A DNA stretch of 32,000 nt from Pirellula staleyi DSM 6068 (GTDB lineage: Bacteria > Planctomycetota > Planctomycetia > Pirellulales > Pirellulaceae), in contig CP001848.1 in assembly GCA_000025185.1 (NCBI GenBank), forward strand, positions 780,001 through 812,000. Direction: 5' to 3'. The notes beneath the pieces were generated by a model. The model had not been told where the DNA came from and made no database searches. It saw only the letters and a list, made by a program, of their open reading frames with translations. Shown here in pieces: positions 12,558 to 32,000 of this stretch (within the stretch, counting starts at the first letter, position 1; each line of letters starts with the position of its first letter). Made by a program: the position numbers and the translations under genes.

Positions 12558-13355
12558 CTATTCCGCAGCTGGTGCGGTGGGGGCTTTCCAGCTGTTGTCG
12601 CGGCCGAAGAACATCATGTGCTGCCACGGCAGGCCGTCGAATTCTTTCACCAGCTTAAAGCCGTTGGCGGGGAGCTCTTTGAGAATCTGCTCCTTGCTCA
12701 TCTTGTGCTCGGCTTTGATCGGCACTTTGGGGTCCTCGCTCCGAAATTCCACCAGCACGGCGAGCCCTTTTTCCGACAGCGAGTTGCGAATCGCGGCGAG
12801 CATCTGCTCGGGATGCGAGAACTCGTGATAGACGTCGACCATCAGCACCAAATCGAGCTTTCCTTTCGGCAGCCGAGGATCGGTGAAGGTTCCCAGGATC
12901 GGCGAGAGGTTGCTGATCTCGGCGGCATCGGCCCGCTCGTTCAGAAATTTCAGCATCTCGGGCTGAATATCGACCGCGTACAAATGCCCTTCAGGTCCGA
13001 CCATTTTGGCGAGCTTCAGGGTGTAAAAGCCGTTGCCACAACCCATGTCGCAAATCGTCATCCCTTGTTTGATGCCGAGGCTGGTGAGCATCAAGCTGCA
13101 GCGTTCCTCTTGCTCGCGATTGTCGCGCGTCAGCCACTCGGCACCCAGGTAGTGCATGGTTTGCGCGATGCGGCGCCCTTTGTACTCGACGAGCGCCGGA
13201 GGACCGGTCCGCTTCACCGGCGCTTTGGGAAGATCGTCGAGCGGCGTGCTATCTTGCGCGATCGCGGCCGTGCTGAGCGCCAACAGCAGCGCGAGCAGCA
13301 GTGCTCGGCCGACAAAGTTTCCAGCTTCATGCGGATGACAAATTCGTAAGCTCAT
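12558..13355 (-). CDS. class I SAM-dependent methyltransferase with N-terminal signal/anchor
   Basis: Track ORF trimmed to ATG at 13355, which has GGAG upstream. Signal GRALLLALLLALSTAAIAQD. Motif I ICDMGCGNGFYT, post-I LYAVDIQ. Confidence 0.85.
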   Translation of the reverse strand: MSLRICHPHEAGNFVGRALLLALLLALSTAAIAQDSTPLDDLPKAPVKRTGPPALVEYKGRRIAQTMHYLGAEWLTRDNREQEERCSLMLTSLGIKQGMTICDMGCGNGFYTLKLAKMVGPEGHLYAVDIQPEMLKFLNERADAAEISNLSPILGTFTDPRLPKGKLDLVLMVDVYHEFSHPEQMLAAIRNSLSEKGLAVLVEFRSEDPKVPIKAEHKMSKEQILKELPANGFKLVKEFDGLPWQHMMFFGRDNSWKAPTAPAAE

Positions 13356-13664
13356 CGCCACAGCTCCAAGGACTTTGCAGCTGCGCAGACGCAGCAGTGC
13401 AGGTCCATCAATAATGTTTTCGAAAGGTTCGGCCCGGTGCATCCCCGCGCTTGCCGCAGGGCCTTGTAGGGCGTGCACCGCTTGTCACACTCTCCGGGCG
13501 TGCGATGATACCAAAGCTCCGCCCGATCGACGATCGCGCGGCCCCCAAGCTTCTATCGTAGAGTCCCCGGACCACTGGCCGCAAGGAACTTGCCTTCCCT
13601 GAAGTTCCAGCGGGCTGGCGCACCTCACCTCGACGCATCGCATTTCTCGTAAGGCAGACGCAGT

Positions 13665-14168
13665 ATGAAGTACCTCATCGAACAGAAACTACTCGCCTGG
13701 GGCGACGACTTTACGATCCGCGACGCCGAGGGGAAACAGATCTACTTTGTCGACGGGCAAGGGATCAGCTTTGGGAACAAGCTGTCGTTTGAAGACCTCG
13801 AGAAACAGCAGCTTGCGTTCATCGAACAGCGCGTTTGGGCGTGGGGGAACGAGTACGACATCGAGCGCGACGGAACCCTGCTCGCGCGCGTCTCGCGCAA
13901 AAGCGCCAGCAACTCGCAGGCGATGCGTTTCTTCGTCGATGTGCCGGGGCCTGAAGATCTCGAAGCGGTCGGCAACTTTATCGCCCGCGACTACAAATTC
14001 ATCCGCCACAACGTCGTCGTCGCCACTGTCCAGTCCGACGAGAGCACCGGCGGCATTTTCGTCGACGTCCCGGGCAACGAAGACGCCGTGCTCCTCCTCT
14101 CCGCCGTCATCGTCATCGACCTCGTGAGCCAAGAACCTGTCAGCAGCGCCAGCCTCTTCCGGGAATAA
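13665..14168 (+). CDS. LURP-one-related / DUF567 (Tubby C-terminal-like, scramblase-like fold) protein
   Basis: MKYLIEQKLLAWGDDFTIRDAEGKQIYFVDG...WAWGNEYDIERDG shows the repeated 'x-W-G-(D/N)-x-(F/Y)-x-I' strands typical of this family. Called from memory of the family pattern only. Confidence 0.6.
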   Translation: MKYLIEQKLLAWGDDFTIRDAEGKQIYFVDGQGISFGNKLSFEDLEKQQLAFIEQRVWAWGNEYDIERDGTLLARVSRKSASNSQAMRFFVDVPGPEDLEAVGNFIARDYKFIRHNVVVATVQSDESTGGIFVDVPGNEDAVLLLSAVIVIDLVSQEPVSSASLFRE

Positions 14169-24597: not shown

Positions 24598-27294
24598 TTA
24601 CGGTTCGGCGGTGGTGGTGCTGTTGAGAATCCGGTCGCCGCCGATCTCTTCGGCTCGAAGCCATAGCGTTTTGCCCACCAGATCCTTGCCGTCGGGGAGC
24701 AGGAAGGTGAGGGTGCTGCGTCCCGGCGCTTGGTCGATCACCTGACGAATCTCGCGACGACGACCAGGAGGAAACAGCGTGCATTCGAAATTCACCGACT
24801 TCTCCGACAGGTTGGTCATGTGCTGCTCGACCACCAGCATCCCATCGCTTCGCAGACGTGTAGAGAGCTCGAGTTTGACATCGGCCAGACCGAGCGAGAG
24901 GCTGCGATAGACGCGGAACTTATAAACCTTGTCGACCGTCAACAGGAACTCGAGCGCCAAGGGCTGATCGCCGCTGCTGGCGTCGGGCTTGAGCGCGATC
25001 GTCATCTTTTCCGACAGCTGATCGTCGCTCGCGAGCTTGAAACGCTTGGCCCGAGGATCGGTTTCCCACGAGGCTGGTGGAATGAGAGTCACTTCCCCAC
25101 CTACACCGCGCGGAAACGGGTTTTTCACGGTAAATTCGATCGTTTGTTCGCGCCCGAACGTACTCGCGACACGCGGCGAAGTGAACGACAAACCGATCTG
25201 CCAACGCGCGATCGGGTCGACAATCCCGGTGACGAACGTCGGTACGGGTCCGACCAAAACTTGGTGCTGATCGCGGCCATCGACACTCTGGCGCTCAAGC
25301 TTGATCTCGCGTCCCCAGAGATCGATCTGTCGCAGGTTCTCGCCCAGCTCGATCAGTTCGGTCGTTGGGGTGTGATTCCAAATCATCATCACCGCCTCGC
25401 CATCGCGGCTGAAGACATGGTTCTCACTTCCGCCCGGAAGGGTGAGCGAGCCAAGGTATTCCGCTCCCGAGATGGCGCTCGAAGTGGTGCGCCACGGCAA
25501 GTAGAGCTCGGTGGGTGTGGCGTCGCGATGAAGCAAACCACACTGGTCGTCGAACGGCTCGGGAACAAACGCCATCTCTGCCCCACCGATGCGCGTCGCG
25601 AGCATCCGCCAAACGAGATCGCAAGCGCGGGTTTGCATCGGATAGTCGGACTTCGGAAGGGGTCGCAGTTGCACCCACCGCGCGAACTTCTGCTGCGCTT
25701 CTTCCTGCGCCGTGCGTGGCGGGATTTTTAAGTACGCTTCGATCTCGGCAGGTGTGAGCGAGGGCTCGCCACCGTACGACAAAAACGACCAGGGGGGAGT
25801 CGCCGCAGGAGGAACTTCGTTCATCCATTTCCAGCAGACACCGAGCTTCACTTCCTGACCAAAACGTTGCAAATGTTCCTTGATTTCCGTGAGTTTGGTC
25901 GCCGCTTCAGGAAAACCGACAAAGCTCGTATCGCTGTCGCTACCGAGTTGCCAGTAGCGCACTTTGAGCGACAGCCGCGTCATCACCGGATCGACGACGG
26001 GATGCCACAATTCGGGTTCGATGAAGACCGACGCCACCGGCAGCGGACCCTTTTCGCGGAAGACTTCGCGCAGCTCTTTGGGAGGCTGATCGAGGACCCC
26101 AATCAGGTCGATATTTTGAATGCTTAAGCGTTCGGCAAACCAGCTCACACGATCGATGCGTTCGCTCTTCGCAGTTTCGCCCCAGACCGGAAATTTGGCC
26201 CAGTGCAAACCGGAGTGCGAGAGCAGCGTCGCGAGATCGTTCATCGAAAGCTGCGTGTCGGCATCGGGAAGCGACCAACCAAATTGTCCATCGCTGGCAA
26301 AGGTCGTTTCGCGGAGCACAACGAAGCTGGTGCGCTCGGTGAGGAGTGTCACGCCACGACTCCGAAGCTGCACGCGCACGCTATAAAAACCGACGTCGGT
26401 CACCATCGGCCGAAAGCGCGTCGAGCCTGCGAGTCCTTCCAGCTGCTTGCCGCTGGTGGTGGTGAGCGACGTTTCGCTGGCGAGTGGTTTCGTGGCGGAA
26501 ATCCCGGGCCACTGAGCACCCAGGTTGAGTGTTTGACTCGACGTAGAGAGCACTTTTCCTTCGTGATCCATCAGCTCGAAGACGAGTTCCGGACGAGGGT
26601 CGTCGATCCCCGAAACATCGCACTGCACTTCCGCATCGCGCGGCTGGGTGAATAGTCCCGCCGTGGTGGTGGGATGAAGTGTCATGCGCGGCAAGCGAAT
26701 GAGCGTCACATCGTCGAACCAGGCGCTGCCGGTCAGATCTTCGCGCAGTTCGCTCGGGATCAAATGGAGCGTCAGGACCGCTTTCACCGCGCGATTGGTC
26801 GCTGGCGCGATCGGTCCGATTTGCACGCGCTGCCAGGTCGTGTCGCCACTGAGCTCGGGCGATTTGTGTGTTTCGAGCAACTGCCCTTCGGCATCCAGGA
26901 GCGAGAGGCTGATGAAGGCAACATCGCGCGCCAGTCCGCGTGTCTGCAGATTGGCGGTCGCAACGAACGAGTATTGCGGGCTGATTGGCGTGATTGGCGT
27001 CGAAATCGCCGCGCCACCGCCGTTGAGCTGCATCTCGAGTACGCGCCGCGCGCGGGGCGCATCGGGATCGTCGACAATCTGCACTTTCACATACTCGGGA
27101 TAGCCTCGCCCACGGCGACGGGTCCACCGATCGGGCCACTGATCGCGGTTGATATCGGTCGGGTTTTCGAAGTCGCACGACAACACCACAGCCGCCGCCG
27201 GCCACTCGGTGGTCGAGACGATCTCGGCTGCCTCACTGCCCAGAATGCAAAAGGTAGCTAAAATCAGCGGCAGGATCGTAATGTGTGGTTTCAT
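24598..27294 (-). CDS. large secreted hypothetical protein (898 aa); function unknown. The N-terminal beta-sandwich/CBM-like domain and central TIM-barrel-like region are only suspected.
   Basis: Signal MKPHITILPLILATFCILGSEAAE. Uninterrupted GC3-rich ORF. All six overlapping track ORFs are shadow frames. Confidence 0.8.
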   Translation of the reverse strand: MKPHITILPLILATFCILGSEAAEIVSTTEWPAAAVVLSCDFENPTDINRDQWPDRWTRRRGRGYPEYVKVQIVDDPDAPRARRVLEMQLNGGGAAISTPITPISPQYSFVATANLQTRGLARDVAFISLSLLDAEGQLLETHKSPELSGDTTWQRVQIGPIAPATNRAVKAVLTLHLIPSELREDLTGSAWFDDVTLIRLPRMTLHPTTTAGLFTQPRDAEVQCDVSGIDDPRPELVFELMDHEGKVLSTSSQTLNLGAQWPGISATKPLASETSLTTTSGKQLEGLAGSTRFRPMVTDVGFYSVRVQLRSRGVTLLTERTSFVVLRETTFASDGQFGWSLPDADTQLSMNDLATLLSHSGLHWAKFPVWGETAKSERIDRVSWFAERLSIQNIDLIGVLDQPPKELREVFREKGPLPVASVFIEPELWHPVVDPVMTRLSLKVRYWQLGSDSDTSFVGFPEAATKLTEIKEHLQRFGQEVKLGVCWKWMNEVPPAATPPWSFLSYGGEPSLTPAEIEAYLKIPPRTAQEEAQQKFARWVQLRPLPKSDYPMQTRACDLVWRMLATRIGGAEMAFVPEPFDDQCGLLHRDATPTELYLPWRTTSSAISGAEYLGSLTLPGGSENHVFSRDGEAVMMIWNHTPTTELIELGENLRQIDLWGREIKLERQSVDGRDQHQVLVGPVPTFVTGIVDPIARWQIGLSFTSPRVASTFGREQTIEFTVKNPFPRGVGGEVTLIPPASWETDPRAKRFKLASDDQLSEKMTIALKPDASSGDQPLALEFLLTVDKVYKFRVYRSLSLGLADVKLELSTRLRSDGMLVVEQHMTNLSEKSVNFECTLFPPGRRREIRQVIDQAPGRSTLTFLLPDGKDLVGKTLWLRAEEIGGDRILNSTTTAEP

Positions 27295-28221: not shown

Positions 28222-29124
28222 ATGAACGATTCCGTTCGCCGCTATACCCCTTCGATGCTCGCTCAACTGGCGAAAGTGAACGTCGCCCAAGTGCGCGCGT
28301 GGCATCGTCGCGGTTGGTTGCTGGCCAGCGACGAGCGGAACCGCGTGAAGTACTACGACTTCTCGGAAGTGGCTGTCGCGCGCCAACTCGCCACGCTCTA
28401 TCGCGGCGGCTTAACGCCCGCTTCGATCGAAAAACAGCTGAAGGATTTGAAGGCCCGTTTTCCCGGCATCGAGCGCCCTTTAGCCGAGCTTTCGATTGTC
28501 GTCGAAGGGAGGCAAATCCTGGTCCGTCAAGCGCGCGGCTTGAGCGAGCCAGGTGGTCAGCTGCGGATCGATTTTCGTGGACTCGACGAAGAGGACGACG
28601 CTCAATCGGGCGCGCCGTCGGTGATTGCGAGTCCCGCGATGTTCCTTCGCCGGGGCCAAGAGTCCGATGAAGCCGCTCCCGAAAATCTCGCAAAATGGGC
28701 CGAAGAACTGCAAGAAGTGGGAGAGCTGCGTGCGGCTGCCGACATGTATCGCGCGGCGCTAGCTGCTGGTGGACCGACCCCGCGACTCTGCTTCGAACTG
28801 GCCGAGTTGCTCTATCGACTCGGAGAACTCGGTGCCGCGCGCGAGCGCTATTCGATGGTGATCGAGCTCGACGAGAACGATGTCGAAGCCCGCGCGAATC
28901 TCGGCTGTGTGCTCGCGGAACTAGGGGAAAAATCGCTAGGAATTGCGGCTCTTTCGGGCGCTATCGATTGCGACCCACAGTATGCCGACGCGCATTTTCA
29001 TCTCGCACGATTGCTCGACGAAACCGACGAGCCCGACGCCGCGACGCGCCACTGGCAGGCCTTTTTGGCCCTCGCCCCCGACAGCCCCTGGGCCGAAGAA
29101 GCTGCCGACCGTTTGCAGCTGTAG
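28222..29124 (+). CDS. MerR-type HTH + TPR-repeat protein
   Basis: YTPSMLAQLAKVNVAQVRAWHRRGWL...YYDFSEVAVARQLATLYRGGLTPASIEKQL is the MerR HTH/wing. C-terminal TPR units AADMYRAALAAG, ARERYSMVIELDENDVEARANLG, DAHFHLARLL. Confidence 0.8.
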   Translation: MNDSVRRYTPSMLAQLAKVNVAQVRAWHRRGWLLASDERNRVKYYDFSEVAVARQLATLYRGGLTPASIEKQLKDLKARFPGIERPLAELSIVVEGRQILVRQARGLSEPGGQLRIDFRGLDEEDDAQSGAPSVIASPAMFLRRGQESDEAAPENLAKWAEELQEVGELRAAADMYRAALAAGGPTPRLCFELAELLYRLGELGAARERYSMVIELDENDVEARANLGCVLAELGEKSLGIAALSGAIDCDPQYADAHFHLARLLDETDEPDAATRHWQAFLALAPDSPWAEEAADRLQL

Positions 29125-29171
29125 CCAGCGGACTGCACCGCTGAACTTCTCTTTCGCGCAGCTCGGCGCAT

Positions 29172-29210
29172 AAAAATACCCGCGACTTCTGCGGACAGAT
29201 CGTCGCGGGT
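29172..29210 (-). terminator. putative intrinsic terminator
   Basis: Stem acccgcgac (29178-29186) / gtcgcgggt (29202-29210) with a 15-nt loop. On the minus strand it is followed by ATTTTTA. Lies ~125 nt downstream of the 29334 stop. Confidence 0.45.
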
Positions 29211-29333
29211 AGTGAGGCGGTTTGCGCTGCACCCGCTAGGTGAGGCCTACCTGATGAGCAAAGTCCGTTGCGCTCGCCGCCGAGCTACGAAGTTGCCAAG
29301 CTACTGTTTGTTGAACTACTACTAGCTGAGCAA

Positions 29334-29621
29334 TTACGACTGCGACTTCGCCACTTTAGCTTCTCGAACAGCACGCGAGGCGTTGTCGAGAAAGTTATCG
29401 ATTTGATTCAGGCCGCGCATCAGCATGGCGTGACCATCGATATCAATCGCATCGATTTTCGAATCGTCCATCGCACGCGCGAGAGCTGCAAATCGAGTTG
29501 CCTGTTCACGAATACGTTCTTGAACACCAGTGATTTTCTGACTGGAGTAGGGCTCTTTGCGCGGGCTTCGCAGGGAGGCATCGTCCCCCCCCACCTTCTT
29601 CACAGATTTCTTCTTGGCCAT
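29334..29621 (-). CDS. small hypothetical protein (95 aa) with Lys-rich N-terminal tail
   Basis: Track ORF trimmed to ATG at 29621 (MAKKKSVKKVGG...), with AAGGAG 8 nt upstream. Confidence 0.55.
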   Translation of the reverse strand: MAKKKSVKKVGGDDASLRSPRKEPYSSQKITGVQERIREQATRFAALARAMDDSKIDAIDIDGHAMLMRGLNQIDNFLDNASRAVREAKVAKSQS

Positions 29622-29639
29622 AGGTAGAAAACTCCTTGC

Positions 29640-29852
29640 CAGCACTGTAACTGCTATCACCAAAGTTGTAAAGCATTTACATCAAAATCTTTCACGATCT
29701 CGGTAAGTATTCTGCAAAAAGTATTGAAGAGATATTCGCGACTGATGTACAGCAGCATATACTGTACGTGTGTTTACTAATGAGCTGCGAGTGGCCCAGT
29801 TATCCACCGCCGCAACAGCCCGTTTTGGGAAGGCTCGGAAAGGAGCAGAACC
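29640..29852. promoter_or_regulatory. AT-rich divergent control region with inverted and direct repeats
   Basis: gtacag-N9-ctgtac (29747-29767). Direct aagtatt at 29705 and 29719. This is the most AT-rich stretch in the last 5 kb. Confidence 0.3.
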
Positions 29853-30191
29853 ATGATCTCGCGAGTCGATCCGCAGCAGCAAGCGCGTGCGAAACTACTG
29901 ATTTTTCAAGGGATTAGCCACCTTTCGATCAGCAAGCGGCTGGGGCTTCACCGGGCCACGATCGCTCGCATCGCCCGGGGGGATCTCGAGGCGCCCGAGC
30001 CCCGCGAAGACCATCCTCCAGGCTACGACGAACGACAAAAACGGCGCTGTCCAACCTGTGGGCACCTGGTCTATCTGTGGCCCTGTTTGGCCTGCGAACT
30101 CGAGACTCCAACGGGTCCGCCAGATGCAGTTCCCGCTCCCCCACCTCGGCAGGATGAACGCCGACGGCGGGCCGATCGCAGTTTTCGATAA
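29853..30191 (+). CDS. HTH + zinc-ribbon small regulator-like protein (112 aa)
   Basis: AAGGAG SD. HTH-like GISHLSISKRLGLHRATIARIARG. CPTCGHLVYLWPCLAC (CxxC-N9-CxxC). Confidence 0.6.
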   Translation: MISRVDPQQQARAKLLIFQGISHLSISKRLGLHRATIARIARGDLEAPEPREDHPPGYDERQKRRCPTCGHLVYLWPCLACELETPTGPPDAVPAPPPRQDERRRRADRSFR

Positions 30192-30244
30192 CTTCCTAAC
30201 ACTTCCGAACGAATTCTTTACGAATTGCTCAAAGGAGCTTCACG

Positions 30245-30466
30245 ATGTCTTTAGAACACACTGTCTCGCTACTCACCACGCTCGTCGGGCTTGGCGTCTC
30301 GATCCTGCTGGCCAGTATTCCTTGGGCCTACGGCATTCATGGTCGGCTGACTCGCATTGAGACGACCCTCGCCGAGTCGCTGCCACATAAGCCGCGACTG
30401 GAGGAGATCGATCGACGGCTCGCGCGGGTCGAATTGCTTCAGGAGCGCGACGCCACCCAGGCTTGA
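30245..30466 (+). CDS. small single-pass membrane protein with C-terminal coiled-coil-like segment (73 aa)
   Basis: AAGGAG SD. TM LLTTLVGLGVSILLASIPWAYGI. Confidence 0.5.
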   Translation: MSLEHTVSLLTTLVGLGVSILLASIPWAYGIHGRLTRIETTLAESLPHKPRLEEIDRRLARVELLQERDATQA

Positions 30467-30506
30467 GCAGCGCGCTCGATTGTCCCCTGCCCCGTTTTGG
30501 AAAGTG

Positions 30507-31001
30507 ATGAGAACCATGTCGAGCCCCACACTTAAGCGTGAACTTCGGTGGATGAAGGCCACGCTGCTCAAGCGACACCCGCTCAAGTTGCGTGCTGCTG
30601 CCCCGCAAGATCGAAAACGAGTCGAGGAGCAAATCGAGCAACTCGGCTGTGTGACGCCGATCATCGCCCATCCTCGCGACGATGGTTCTCTCGAGATTCT
30701 CGACGGGCATCTGCGCGCCGAGATCGCGGGAGAGAACCTCGTCCCTGTCGTCGTCCTGGAATGCGACAACGCAGCGTCGGCACCGATTTTTGCGGCACTT
30801 CAGCAGCGAAGCGATCGGCCACAAGTAACGAGTCGTTACGCGAAGAAAACGCCTGCCGATTTGGTGCGTGACGCGGAGAAGATTCCCGCTTCGTATCAGT
30901 TGCTCGTCGATTGTGGCGCGGAGCCGCAGCAACGATTGCTGTTTGATGCACTCGAAGCGCAAGGGCTCCGCTGCCGCGTTCTCACGCTGACGACCTCGTA
31001 G
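30507..31001 (+). CDS. ParB N-terminal (ParB/Srx-like nuclease) domain protein
   Basis: Track ORF 30357..31001 trimmed to ATG 30507 to avoid overlap. HPLKLR...IEQLGCVTPIIAHPRDDGSLEILDGHLRAEIAG..LVPVVVLE fits the ParB-N pattern (hP.N.R...SI...G...Pi.v...g..i.dGH.R..A). C-terminal YQLLVDCGAEPQQRLLFDALEAQGLRCRVLTL mini-domain. Confidence 0.7.
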   Translation: MRTMSSPTLKRELRWMKATLLKRHPLKLRAAAPQDRKRVEEQIEQLGCVTPIIAHPRDDGSLEILDGHLRAEIAGENLVPVVVLECDNAASAPIFAALQQRSDRPQVTSRYAKKTPADLVRDAEKIPASYQLLVDCGAEPQQRLLFDALEAQGLRCRVLTLTTS

Positions 31002-31115
31002 CAGATCACGCTTGATTCACCAGTTCACTGTTTACCTCTCCCTTGCCAAAGAGCGCGGGCAAGCACGAGAGTCGTACGTCGCTGCGCACTCGGCAAATCA
31101 TCGAAAGGGACGACC

Positions 31116-32000
31116 ATGACACGCTTTGACATTCATCTTTGTTCGCAAGTTCCGCGCACGTTTCGTTTAGCAGCGCTCGAAGGAACATTTGGACTGGAGT
31201 GCGCAGAAATGTCGCATGAACGGATCGAGGCCGAGGTCCCCTCGCTCGAAGAGTCGTGGCGCATCGGCGCTATTGTGGGCCCGAGCGGAAGTGGCAAGAC
31301 GACGCTCGCCAAAGCTGCTTTTTCCCAAGGATTTCGCGATATTTTGCCTTGGCGGGGGGATGTCGCGATGATCGATGGGTTGCCCGATCGTCCCCTCGCC
31401 GAACTGATGAGTCTGCTCACTTCGGTGGGACTCGGAAGCCCACGCATCTGGACGCGGCCGTTTCATCAACTGAGTAGCGGCGAGCAGTTTCGCGCCCATC
31501 TAGCTCGAGCATTGGCGGCTCCTGTCGACGAAGCGCGTCACTCGGTGCTTGTCGTCGATGAGTTCACCAGCAACGTCGATCGGACCACCGCGCGGAGCAT
31601 CGCAGCGGCTGTCGGTGCAACGCTGCGGCGGAATCCTCAACTCCCTCGGCTGGTGGTTGTCACCTGTCATCACGATATCGTCCCGTGGCTCTCGCCGGAC
31701 TGGCATGTCAACTTGAATAGCGGGTCGGCAGTGCTCGAGCGCACGCGTGTCGCGCGACCGCTGGTGAAGCTCGAAGTCGAGCGGGCTCCGCAAAGCATGT
31801 GGCAACAGTTTCGCAAGCATCACTACCTGCATGGCGACCTCGGTCGTTCGAGCAGTTGCTACATCGCCAAATGGCAAGGAGAACTTGCGGCGTTCCTCGC
31901 CGTGGTTCCTCAGCTCGGTCGCGCGGGTCAAAAGCGGATCTCGCGCATCGTCACGCTGCCACAGTTTCAAGGACTCGGTATTGGAATGCGACTCGCCGAG
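31116..32000 (+). CDS. ABC-type ATPase fused to GNAT-like acetyltransferase domain (5' partial; runs off the window)
   Basis: Own translation from ATG 31116, open for 295 codons to the window end, so not in the ORF track. Walker A GPSGSGKTT (31278-31304), signature LSSGEQ (31470-31487), Walker B VLVVDEF (31545-31565), H-loop VVVTCHHD. GNAT motif-A-like RIVTLPQFQGLGIG (31962-31985). Confidence 0.8.
   Translation, partial: MTRFDIHLCSQVPRTFRLAALEGTFGLECAEMSHERIEAEVPSLEESWRIGAIVGPSGSGKTTLAKAAFSQGFRDILPWRGDVAMIDGLPDRPLAELMSLLTSVGLGSPRIWTRPFHQLSSGEQFRAHLARALAAPVDEARHSVLVVDEFTSNVDRTTARSIAAAVGATLRRNPQLPRLVVVTCHHDIVPWLSPDWHVNLNSGSAVLERTRVARPLVKLEVERAPQSMWQQFRKHHYLHGDLGRSSSCYIAKWQGELAAFLAVVPQLGRAGQKRISRIVTLPQFQGLGIGMRLAE

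Follow-up and report, generated by a model that had tools for sequence, protein, structure and literature searches.

A phage-borne ABC ATPase-acetyltransferase fusion with a ParB-like partner in a planctomycete chromosome, and its possible role in DNA modification before packaging

What does a bacterium do with a protein in which an ABC-type ATPase appears to be joined to an acetyltransferase, and why is its gene preceded by one for a ParB-like protein? The question is raised by the 3′ end of the window, the whole 32,000-nucleotide stretch of the Pirellula staleyi DSM 6068 chromosome analysed here (CP001848.1, positions 780,001 to 812,000). A first-pass annotation made from the letters of this DNA had proposed an unlisted gene starting at ATG 31116, and translation bears it out: there are 295 stop-free codons on the forward strand before the window end cuts the gene, and GAAAGGGA lies 8 nt 5′ of the start. 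The gene is missing from the ORF list because its reading frame runs off the window, and a frame on the other strand is listed in its stead, as the annotation had also said; since that frame lies wholly inside a conserved forward-strand gene, it is not a gene itself. The full-length gene is present in ~98%-identical contigs (L107-L110; in L107 at 12888..14027), and the window holds codons 1-295, the 5′ 78%, of this 379-aa gene for an ABC-ATPase::GNAT fusion, called ABC-GNAT below. Its features are as follows.

31116..32000, forward strand: ABC-GNAT, with the ABC domain at about aa 1-210 and the GNAT domain from about aa 213 (nt 31752)
31278..31304, forward strand: Walker A (P-loop) GPSGSGKTT, aa 55-63, invariant in a 29-sequence family alignment
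31470..31487, forward strand: ABC signature LSSGEQ, aa 119-124, with L119, S120 and G122 invariant in that alignment
31545..31583, forward strand: Walker B VLVVDEF (aa 144-150, catalytic Glu149) and D-loop SNVDR (aa 152-156), with D148, E149, T151, D155 and R156 invariant
31665..31676, forward strand: H-loop CHHD, aa 184-187, with C184, H185 and D187 invariant
31800..31829, forward strand: family-specific W-x2-F-x2-HHYL motif in GNAT alpha1 and the alpha1-beta2 loop (alignment and AF2 model), a probable acceptor-substrate site
31935..31985, forward strand: GNAT motif A (R-x2-R-x-V-x2-P-x-[YF]-Q-G-x-G-I-G), aa 274-290, the acyl-CoA pyrophosphate-binding loop (alignment and Pfam)
31500..31970, reverse strand: 156-aa ORF, an antisense shadow and not itself a gene

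The motifs of the ABC superfamily lie where they had been reported and in the expected order (Walker A, Q-loop region, signature, Walker B with the catalytic Glu, D-loop, H-loop), with ~57 aa between Walker A and the signature. The same holds for GNAT motif A, which reads RISRIVTLPQFQGLGIG in the window copy and is invariant as RISRxVTLPxYQGxGIG across the 29 aligned sequences. Even the truncated ORF scores above the Pfam cut-offs for both ABC_tran (32.5 bits vs 25) and Acetyltransf_1 (22.8 bits vs 20.7), and the full-length GNAT half reaches 34-38 bits for the latter. The family profile matches ABC nucleotide-binding domains in the PDB. Foldseek searches with an AF2 model (pLDDT 88, pTM 0.82) return the nucleotide-binding domains of MlaF, LolD, MJ0796, MacB and FtsE (E ~1e-8) and, for a GNAT half whose topology agrees with the GNAT fold, RimI, 1y9k, 2ae6 and 9mto; a protein of Leptospira phage LE4 is a full-length match (TM 0.78). 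The helical subdomain of the ABC domain is shorter in the model than in transporters. Motifs and model together point to a compact, soluble ABC-type ATPase with intact catalytic motifs, fused to a canonical GNAT domain of the acyl-CoA type, much as the annotation had read it. Proteins of the family are also very basic, with a median pI of 9.9 and a net charge of +16, the GNAT half alone carrying +14.

The gene immediately upstream had been described as ParB-like, and its features are these.

30507..31001, forward strand: ParB/Srx-fold partner (profile and AF2 model), 164 aa from ATG 30507, the start called in L107; the reading frame is open as far upstream as TTG 30357
30702-30722, forward strand: Box II (G-x-x-R motif) DGHLRAE of the partner, retained in the window copy
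30894-30989, forward strand: conserved C-terminal beta-alpha-beta mini-domain of the partner (...YQLLVDC..E..Q...G..CRVLTL), defined by family conservation

The window partner by itself gives a weak match to Pfam ParB_N (E 0.017-0.06) and a match to phrog_498 at 7e-4, and its lineage has lost the N-x-R-x-H motif together with ~45 aa. The profile of the partner family matches Spo0J (1vz0) at 1.4e-6 and Noc at 2.5e-4, and the AF2 model matches structures of ParB (ParB-CDP), Noc, KorB and Srx, so that the description as a ParB/Srx-superfamily protein is well supported by profile and predicted fold. Members of this acidic family (median pI 4.8) consist of the N-domain and a 35-aa C-terminal mini-domain, in which their most conserved residues lie. 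They are not canonical partition ParB proteins of chromosomes or plasmids: they measure only 164-200 aa, no HTH is seen in the model, and no ParA gene was found nearby in the relatives of the window or in the surveyed loci.

The association of the two genes, which the annotation had treated as a pair, is conserved. A same-strand ParB-fold gene is present, nearly always immediately upstream, in 77 of the 78 loci that could be assessed among 80 non-redundant ones; adjacent upstream, same-strand ParB-like genes were counted in 67 (+3) of the 80. Single-chain ParB::ABC-GNAT fusions number 10 among the 150 best representatives, and in the ParB-less loci of phiE255 and a Cardiobacterium MAG a mini-ORF keeps the C-terminal mini-domain alone. 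On the 5′ side of the ParB gene the neighbours vary (DUF3310, HNH, GpA and others); no third conserved component was found.

How far does this pair extend beyond Pirellula? The closest homologue, P0001, is 98% identical (E = 2e-190) and heads a search that returned 672 matches; judged from these alignments, the homology lies far above chance level. At E <= 1e-30 the ABC-GNAT family comprises ~1,031 clusters at 50% identity, and it occurs on at least 482 viral contigs of IMG/VR and in 65 cultured-phage records. The cultured carriers include Gordonia phages (among them BiggityBass and Yago84), Streptococcus pyogenes prophages (315.4, phiNIH1.1), Lactococcus P335 phages, Leptospira LE3/LE4, Burkholderia phiE255 (B. 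thailandensis), jumbo phages and Pseudomonas phages; lytic phages are among the carriers and the family is abundant in them. With phrog_11143 as a further match (E = 2.3e-75), ABC-GNAT is a widespread bacteriophage family and not an orphan. In a profile scan of genome contigs most matches reflected the generic Walker A pattern, the true relatives being L001, L002 and perhaps L003 only, and gene neighbourhoods were therefore drawn from contigs encoding homologues and from IMG/VR.

The annotation had not recognised the pairing as a known system, a statement that has to be withdrawn. Iyer et al. (2021, Viruses 13:63; PMC7824862, section 3.4.7) list a ‘GNAT coupled with an ABC ATPase’ whose predicted activity is DNA-base acylation, and they credit the prediction to Iyer, Zhang, Burroughs and Aravind (2013, NAR 41:7635). 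According to the 2021 paper, then, the family was flagged computationally in 2013 as a predicted DNA-base acyl-modification system. The system of Iyer et al., a computational prediction only, has the same domain architecture and the same phage setting, and their example, Tenacibaculum phage pT24, is recovered by tblastn of P0001 (33% identity, E = 3e-41), with pT24 ORFs matching our family HMM at 8.6e-61 and 1.4e-10. By these sequence matches the window protein belongs to their phage ABC-ATPase::GNAT family, for which DNA acylation itself is a prediction; the window copy is a good example of the family and not a new kind of system. Relative to the 2013 prediction as the citing paper presents it, the present measurements concern the near-obligate ParB partner, the fusions, the C-terminal mini-domain, the position before TerS and TerL, and the chromosomal copies in planctomycetes.

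In phage genomes the pair usually lies directly upstream of the genes for the small (TerS) and large (TerL) terminase subunits, whatever the terminase family. The first large ORF downstream encodes TerL in up to 44 of 65 loci in a Pfam scan, and these TerL proteins belong to at least four families (Terminase_6, Terminase_3, GpA and TerL_ATPase); the scan replaced a single iterated TerL HMM, which found only 2 members because the terminases belong to different families. Small ORFs between ABC-GNAT and TerL are TerS-like, with an HTH, and in L107 the start of the TerS-like gene overlaps the ABC-GNAT stop. The order ParB-like, ABC-GNAT, TerS/TerL recurs in phiNIH1.1, Gordonia phage BiggityBass and LE3/LE4. 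In jumbo and Mu-like phages the cassette can lie apart from the terminase genes, and in the Mu-like phiE255 ABC-GNAT follows the tail-fibre genes, the place that mom occupies in Mu. The annotation had named, as grounds for giving up its idea, that homologues be established parts of a known phage module; the position ahead of TerS and TerL comes near to this, although the cassette does not count as an established part of the packaging module.

Our preferred interpretation, to which we would give a little less than an even chance, is that ABC-GNAT and the ParB-like protein form an ATP-gated, acyl-CoA-dependent DNA modification system that acts before packaging. According to this interpretation, the enzyme would be a nucleic-acid N-acyltransferase, most likely working on DNA bases, late in infection and before or during packaging. 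Head-to-tail dimerisation in the ATP-bound state is common to all ABC ATPases. ATP binding would thus bring two ABC domains together in this way and close the strongly basic GNAT halves around DNA. The acidic ParB-fold partner, with its NTP-binding N-domain and C-terminal mini-domain and no DNA-binding domain, may serve as an activator or clamp, in the manner of the phage ParB proteins that activate T-dioxygenases on dsDNA, and would dock through the conserved beta-alpha-beta mini-domain. The GNAT domain would then take an acyl group, acetyl or another, from acyl-CoA and place it on the exocyclic amine of a base, and ATP hydrolysis would reset the complex; the resulting mark would shield packaged DNA from host nucleases. 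An ATPase-gated acetyltransferase working with a ParB-like protein, the idea put forward in the annotation, thus stays the best working model.

We favour DNA as the target because the enzyme is very basic, because its position in phiE255 is mom-like, because Mom and the ParB/T-dioxygenase pair set precedents, and because Iyer et al. arrived at the same prediction; the ParB partner and the packaging context, like the basic GNAT half, lend indirect support. Mom of phage Mu, also a GNAT, acylates adenine at N6 in dsDNA (PMC13219725). Like ABC-GNAT it is phage-encoded and has the GNAT fold (PMC13219725, PMC7261163), and it acts post-replicatively on dsDNA, leading to restriction evasion. Mom, however, uses Gly-tRNA(Gly) and has neither an ATPase domain nor a ParB partner, whereas ABC-GNAT keeps a canonical acyl-CoA motif A. 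The second precedent is a phage ParB without a DNA-binding domain that activates a DNA T-dioxygenase on dsDNA (PMC13229309). Those 5mYOX/ParB systems likewise combine a DNA-modifying enzyme with a small ParB-fold protein made of a nucleotide-binding N-domain and a C-terminal domain, and they are often terminase-associated, although their enzyme is an Fe/2OG dioxygenase and not an ABC-GNAT. Prophage ParB-methyltransferase fusions (phrog_498; B. cereus Bce_0392) also place a ParB fold and a DNA-modifying enzyme beside terminase genes, but they have no ATPase and methylation by them is SAM-dependent. A GTP-binding ParB::acetyltransferase fusion has been described as well (PMC12704722), in a text that does not place it relative to the ABC-GNAT family.

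Several observations weigh against DNA acylation. The GNAT domain is nearer to generic protein or small-molecule GNATs of the RimI kind than to Mom: Mom is absent from the top 50 Foldseek matches in PDB and BFVD, and an NCBIfam scan gave only a weak RimI match. We had likened HHYL to the K-H-Y of Mom, and membership in the Mom family was rejected when hhalign of the family alignment against Mu Mom returned a probability of 0.2% and neither NCBIfam nor Foldseek lent support; the functional analogy is kept. The partners are acidic and have no DNA-binding domain, so that DNA loading by ParB is not evident, and the loss of N-x-R-x-H and the 45-aa segment in the window partner counts on the same side. 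So does the planctomycete setting: no complete phage was found beside the cassette there, and therefore there is no evident DNA to mark. We know of no N-acetylated or N-acylated base reported in phage DNA apart from the Mom product. A computational study finds simple acyl groups on N6-adenine to be unstable (Silva et al. 2026).

The strongest competitor, which we regard as unlikely yet worth serious consideration, is that the ParB-assisted enzyme acetylates a protein (the small or large terminase, portal or capsid, a nucleoid protein or a host factor) and so sets the timing of packaging or the takeover of the host. Phage GNATs are usually read as protein modifiers (PMC5512222, PMC7824862), phiKMV Rac acting on RNA polymerase is a precedent for a host factor, the GNAT half is closest to RimI-type and generic GNATs in both sequence and fold, and ABC-GNAT shows translational coupling with the terminase genes. 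The variety of unrelated TerL families and the terminase-distant copies in jumbo and Mu-like phages, however, leave no fixed packaging-protein substrate apparent, and a GNAT half so extremely basic, together with a ParB-fold partner, points instead to a polyanionic substrate.

Packaging could also be served without any modification, an option that we consider improbable. Here the ParB-like protein and the ABC ATPase would recognise or remodel pac/cos sites or concatemer ends for the terminase, and the GNAT domain would be regulatory or vestigial. DNA handling is common among ParB-fold proteins and soluble ABC ATPases, and the cassette sits constantly either beside TerS/TerL or at the opposite end of the genome, so that it flanks the genome terminus. 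Against this, the invariance of motif A, HHYL and SHP among sequences of only 40-60% identity argues for catalysis, the cassette is independent of the TerL family, and TerS-like genes exist besides it. Neither is the pair itself a small terminase: separate TerS-like HTH ORFs exist between ABC-GNAT and TerL, and ABC-GNAT has no TerS match in Pfam.

Less probable again is an RNA or tRNA acetyltransferase that, like TmcA/NAT10, would acetylate RNA at the expense of ATP and thereby tune translation or escape tRNA-targeting defences. The likeness is real in that TmcA and NAT10 join a P-loop NTP-hydrolysing domain to a GNAT using acetyl-CoA to acetylate the amine of a nucleobase, and TmcA (2zpa) appears at Foldseek ranks 9 and 16. 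Their NTPase, though, is of the helicase type, they carry DUF1726 and a tRNA-binding domain, and their role is cellular housekeeping. Membership in that family was rejected, as the NTPase here is ABC-type, there is no extra RNA-binding domain, and the 2zpa match (TM 0.27, rmsd 13.7) arranges the two domains differently. RNA-type neighbours occur occasionally, namely ASCH in phiNIH1.1 and an Fmt-like formyltransferase in Gordonia phages and phiE255. ASCH, an ac4C-amidohydrolase-like domain that we had tried as a clue to N4-acetylcytosine, is found in only 1 of the 96 small ORFs neighbouring ABC-GNAT and is not a general feature. An RNA target would also leave the ParB partner and the packaging context unexplained.

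The annotation had drawn an analogy to phage defence, which did not hold up; that an ABC-ATPase effector of prophage or host works here with a ParB-like sensor in anti-phage defence or exclusion, as in Gabija, Septu or PARIS, now seems to us very unlikely. Several defence systems do contain soluble ABC ATPases, and the copy in the window lies on the chromosome and has been conserved by vertical descent within Pirellulales. Yet the PADLOC matches stay at the level of motifs (the signature segment for mad3, at 6.7e-13; Walker A for AriA, over 17 aa, and AbiLi, over ~20 aa), the family abounds in lytic phages within the packaging operon, and the surveyed neighbourhoods hold no conserved nuclease or effector partner. 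Membership in Gabija, Septu, PARIS, OLD or Lamassu was rejected on the first and last of these grounds. An ordinary ATP-binding subunit of an ABC transporter, as many database annotations have it, can be regarded as refuted in effect by the genes around it. In sequence and fold the N-terminal half does match transporter nucleotide-binding domains best, but none of more than 80 loci has a permease or binding-protein gene next to it and no membrane partner appears in the window relatives, in keeping with the first-pass remark that there was none, and the shortened helical subdomain, the fused GNAT and the phage-packaging context speak against it.

If DNA acylation before packaging is the function, what might it serve in a planctomycete? 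The cassette in the window belongs to a phage-packaging module that lies on the chromosome of a Pirellulales planctomycete and is ameliorated in composition, with the order HTH, 73-aa ORF, ParB-like, ABC-GNAT, TerS-like, TerL. Anatilimnocola floriformis is a cultivable carrier of the planctomycete element. The features upstream of the ParB-like gene are as follows.

28222..29124, forward strand: MerR-HTH and TPR protein, in conserved synteny with the module in Pirellulales (L025, L117, L119), uncertain as a part of it
29853..30191, forward strand: helix-turn-helix protein of 112 aa that matches Terminase_5/HTH_23 weakly, its position kept in Pirellulales loci
30245..30466, forward strand: 73-aa ORF with a hydrophobic N-terminal segment, conserved in L107-L109

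One attractive but distinctly tentative possibility is that the pair is an ATP-gated, possibly NTP-gated machine that adds a new N-acyl (e.g. N-acetyl) nucleobase to capsid-bound DNA, and that in Pirellulales it has been domesticated, alongside TerS/TerL and a tail-less set of capsid genes, as a vertically inherited, GTA- or cf-PICI-like element marking the DNA that it packages.

Should the proposed mechanism prove correct, ABC-GNAT would join Mom as a second way of modifying DNA bases with a GNAT, and would be the first in which an ABC ATPase supplies the power and a ParB-fold partner assists. It would add to an emerging theme in which phages repurpose ParB as a cofactor of DNA-modifying enzymes, and it might explain restriction resistance or sequencing anomalies in carrier phages, among which those of Streptococcus pyogenes, Lactococcus, Gordonia, Burkholderia, Pseudomonas and Leptospira are tractable. 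Annotation of the protein as an ‘ABC transporter’ or ‘hypothetical protein’ needs correcting; the labels that family members carry in databases include ‘ABC transporter ATP-binding protein’, ‘iron siderophore transporter’ and ‘hypothetical protein’.

The gene at the right-hand end of the window (ABC-GNAT; 31116..32000, plus strand, cut by the window end) is as the first-pass annotation read it, correct in every detail: translation from the ATG at 31116, with GAAAGGGA just upstream, gives 295 uninterrupted sense codons open to the window edge, and the ORF list shows the antisense frame 31500..31970 in its place. The ABC and GNAT motifs named there all fall at the expected residues of the protein:

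aa 55-63: Walker A, GPSGSGKTT
aa 119-124: signature, LSSGEQ
aa 144-150: Walker B, VLVVDEF
aa 152-156: D-loop, SNVDR
aa 184-187: H-loop, CHHD
aa 274-290: GNAT motif A, RISRIVTLPQFQGLGIG

Both domains of the window ORF exceed the curated Pfam cut-offs (ABC_tran, 32.5 bits; Acetyltransf_1, 22.8 bits). The complete protein, read from four loci ~98% identical to the window (L107-L110), has 379 aa, and the full-length GNAT half reaches 34-38 bits with Acetyltransf_1 and also passes with Acetyltransf_7, Acetyltransf_10 and FR47. A database search returned 672 significant relatives of ~355-400 aa, the majority from Pirellulales and other Planctomycetota, which are named 'GNAT family N-acetyltransferase' or carry assorted ABC transporter names; by exhaustive profile search (E <= 1e-30), the family comprises 1,031 clusters at 50% identity. 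Across an alignment of 29 of the 672 (38-61% identical to P0001, the closest homologue), all catalytic ABC residues are invariant, as are a W-x2-F-x2-HHYL motif, a motif A of the form R-x2-R-x-V-x2-P-x2-Q-G-x-G-I-G and an S-H-P motif. With this alignment, AlphaFold2 gave a confident two-domain model (pLDDT 88, pTM 0.82). In Foldseek, its N-terminal half resembled nucleotide-binding domains of the transporter type (MlaF, LolD, MJ0796, MacB, FtsE) and its C-terminal half small GNATs (RimI, 1y9k, 2ae6, 9mto), a result that, with the Pfam scores, bears out the GNAT fold proposed for the C-terminal part. The protein is thus a member of both the ABC and GNAT superfamilies.

In three family members the ABC domain is interrupted by an insertion the size of an intein, with Hint-like sequence beginning at a Cys (P0217, aa 63-402; P0270, aa 122-550; P0275, aa 125-464); one insertion directly follows the lysine of Walker A, and the other two come just ahead of the signature motif. 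Inteins typically occupy sites that are critical to the function of important phage proteins of DNA metabolism. In Firmicute phages and Tenacibaculum phage pT24, the ABC half and the GNAT half each have an ORF of their own, the two overlapping or lying side by side (phiNIH1.1, L111 4977-6067; pT24, L115 3935-5107), and tblastn consistently returned two pieces for all Streptococcus, Lactococcus and Oenococcus matches. This arrangement reflects either a true two-subunit form or a conserved frameshift.

ABC-GNAT is a phage gene. Relatives are encoded by at least 482 viral contigs in an IMG/VR scan, the PHROGs match is phrog_11143 (function unknown; E = 2.3e-75), and the sole full-length match in a viral structure library is a Leptospira phage LE4 protein named 'putative GNAT family N-acetyltransferase' (E = 1e-33, TM 0.78). 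Among cultured phages, tblastn matched 65 records: Gordonia and Arthrobacter phages; prophages of S. pyogenes, S. dysgalactiae and S. agalactiae (phiNIH1.1, 315.4 and the Javan series); Lactococcus P335 and Oenococcus phages; Porphyromonas, Pasteurella and Pseudomonas phages; Leptospira LE3/LE4; the Mu-like Burkholderia phiE255; and T4-like jumbo phages of Aeromonas, Vibrio and Tenacibaculum. The view that this pairing belonged to no recognised system did not hold up, for a phage ABC-GNAT family had been predicted earlier as a DNA-base acylation system, with pT24 as the example cited in PMC7824862. Both tblastn and HMM searches find a clear homologue of the window gene in pT24, and the window gene belongs to that predicted, experimentally uncharacterised family. 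The GTP-binding ParB-acetyltransferase fusion of PMC12704722 (PNAS 2025) might be a further member, since the family's ABC half is poorly recognised by Pfam.

The gene's position in phage genomes is usually beside the packaging genes. When the first ORF of at least 350 aa downstream of ABC-GNAT was classified by Pfam at 65 loci, it was a large terminase (TerL) in up to 44, a sum over families (Terminase_6N/6C, 20; Terminase_3, 15; GpA, 6; TerL_ATPase, 2; T7, 1) in which two families could rarely match one protein. The small ORFs in between are like small terminases (TerS; HTH_23, Sf6_terminase, Terminase_2, Terminase_4, Terminase_7). The annotated phage phiNIH1.1 has the order ParB, ABC(-GNAT), ASCH, hypothetical protein, TerL, portal; genes 1-4 of Gordonia BiggityBass are ParB-like, ABC-like, formyltransferase-like and terminase; and in LE3/LE4, genes 12-13 precede TerL and portal. 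In other phages the pair stands at the extreme right of the linear map, where it adjoins the terminase genes across the genome terminus. The exceptions are the jumbo phages, in which the pair lies among early or unknown genes, and phiE255, in which it comes after the tail-fibre genes, the place that mom has in Mu. Some phages carry a Formyl_trans_N (PurN/Fmt-like) gene directly 3' of ABC-GNAT (3 of 96 intervening ORFs; BiggityBass gp3, L112 1823-2473, annotated 'tRNA-methyltransferase'; phiE255 gp30, L113 6101-6715), which may point to a further amine-modifying reaction in a subset of cassettes.

The partnership with the upstream ParB-like gene is strongly supported. An HMM seeded with the window's upstream ORF was iterated over all fetched loci, which were de-replicated at 90% identity to 80 and analyzed with crude ORF calls. 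A ParB-like gene lies on the same strand, within 150 nt upstream of ABC-GNAT, at 67 of these; at the rest it overlaps over-extended ABC-GNAT calls (3), lies 151-600 nt (5) or >600 nt (1) upstream, lies downstream (1), cannot be assessed at a contig end (2) or is absent (1). Moreover, both HMMs agree on single-polypeptide fusions, ParB-like N-terminus first, in 10 of the best 150 representatives. Genes upstream of the ParB gene are heterogeneous across the surveyed loci. The partner has a genuine ParB/Srx fold, as first suggested: its family profile matches Spo0J (1.4e-6), and its AlphaFold2 model matches CTP/CDP-bound ParB, Noc, KorB and sulfiredoxin. At 164-200 aa it has no HTH DNA-binding domain, and it is not a canonical partition ParB. 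Its C-terminus is a 35-aa beta-alpha-beta mini-domain (consensus V-x-V-x-C-x2-E-x2-Q...E-G-x2-C-R-x-L) that holds the most conserved residues of the family (E 98%, Q 96%, G 96%). At ParB-less loci (phiE255 gp28 and a Cardiobacterium MAG), ABC-GNAT is preceded by an ORF of 73-106 aa that matches the mini-domain only; because this piece alone is kept where ParB is missing, the mini-domain probably serves as the constant module for interaction, with the ParB N-domain as an add-on. The window copy (30507-31001) retains Box II DGHLRAE and an intact mini-domain, has LKLRAAAP in place of the N-x-R-x-H motif, and has lost ~45 residues of the helical region. It is ~35% identical to other planctomycete copies, compared with ~50% for the neighbouring ABC-GNAT and its relatives, and by sequence is degenerate relative to its family.

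In this family the ABC ATPase and the acyl-CoA-type GNAT are both intact, the ParB-fold partner is near-obligate and the context is a packaging operon. ATP hydrolysis by ABC ATPases requires a head-to-tail dimer, so ABC-GNAT should alternate between an open form and a dimer closed by ATP. It is strikingly basic (median pI 9.9, net charge +16, of which +14 in the GNAT half), and a catalytic half of this charge speaks for a polyanionic substrate. The ParB-like family is acidic (median pI 4.8, net charge -11); given this strong charge complementarity, the partner might act by masking or mimicking the polyanionic substrate instead of binding DNA itself. Three precedents make DNA the most likely candidate substrate: Mom, a GNAT, acylates N6-adenine in dsDNA post-replicatively (PMC13219725); phage ParB proteins with a nucleotide-binding N-domain, a C-terminal domain and no DNA-binding domain activate their cognate T-dioxygenases, and do so specifically on dsDNA (PMC13229309); and ParB-methyltransferase fusions occupy the same genomic position as the ParB-like/ABC-GNAT pair. 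From the basic GNAT half, these precedents and the earlier prediction with its pT24 homologue, we tentatively favour an ATP-gated, ParB-assisted DNA-base N-acyltransferase that would act before packaging. ABC-GNAT is not itself Mom.

A protein acetyltransferase is rather unlikely given the charge of the GNAT half. The position next to TerL is what a non-modifying packaging accessory would show, a reading that makes no use of the invariant motif A and that we consider improbable; TerS itself is encoded by the separate ORFs between ABC-GNAT and TerL. RNA or tRNA is a very doubtful substrate: TmcA is among the Foldseek matches with a poor superposition, and ABC-GNAT is not a TmcA/NAT10 protein. 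The defence-island framing of the first-pass annotation found no support, as the protein belongs to no known ABC-type defence system, and a defence role is highly unlikely. A transporter subunit, which the fold of the ABC half might bring to mind, is practically out of the question, and the protein does not belong to the ABC transporters.

The window locus is chromosomal, in a Pirellulales-type planctomycete, and with its relatives L107 (GCA_002483025.1), L108 and L109 gives the following order:

gene 1: AP-endonuclease-fold protein
gene 2, window 28222..29124: MerR-TPR
gene 3, minus strand: 95-aa gene
gene 4, 29853..30191: HTH, 112 aa
gene 5, 30245..30466, plus strand: 73-aa ORF
gene 6, 30507..31001, plus strand: ParB-like
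gene 7, from 31116, plus strand: ABC-GNAT
gene 8, GTG start overlapping the ABC-GNAT stop: 216-aa sigma70-r4/HTH TerS-like ORF
gene 9: TerL, 498 aa
gene 10, opposite strand, L107 16065-18197 (-): 710-aa gene
thereafter: ordinary regulators

No portal, capsid or tail genes adjoin the locus in this order, and its G+C (0.58-0.60) equals that of its surroundings. The 73-aa ORF, kept in L107-L109 with no Pfam match, begins with a hydrophobic stretch resembling a transmembrane segment (SLLTTLVGLGVSILLASIPWAYGI) and ends in a charged tail that looks helical; an 898-aa ORF (window 24598-27294, minus strand) is called as a gene in L107-L109 with no Pfam family on record. The make-up of the locus here and in other Pirellulales, with invariant catalytic motifs, suggests long-term selected retention of the module, not a recent prophage.

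Three Anatilimnocola loci (L025, L117, L119), relatives of window 28222-32000, share MerR-TPR, HTH, ParB-like, ABC-GNAT and TerL genes, with a Peptidase_S13 also in the ABC-GNAT arm. The opposite arm holds Portal_Mu/F-like, Mu gp36-like, E-type major capsid and HDPD decoration genes. The two arms together form a conserved head gene set (L025 1229-10595; L117 1215-12587; L119 1702-12681) that is interspersed with host-type genes and has no tail genes. L118 and L026 have ParB, ABC-GNAT, TerS, TerL, portal and capsid, then host genes. The tail-less set, on which we found no literature, has the look of an element passed on vertically and possibly domesticated, in the manner of a GTA or cf-PICI. 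At every Pirellulales locus inspected, a gene of 710-845 aa with no Pfam match lies on the opposite strand just past TerL (L024 5166-7349; L025 12244-14703; L117 14781-17225; L119 14359-16896; all minus) and may be part of the same conserved element.
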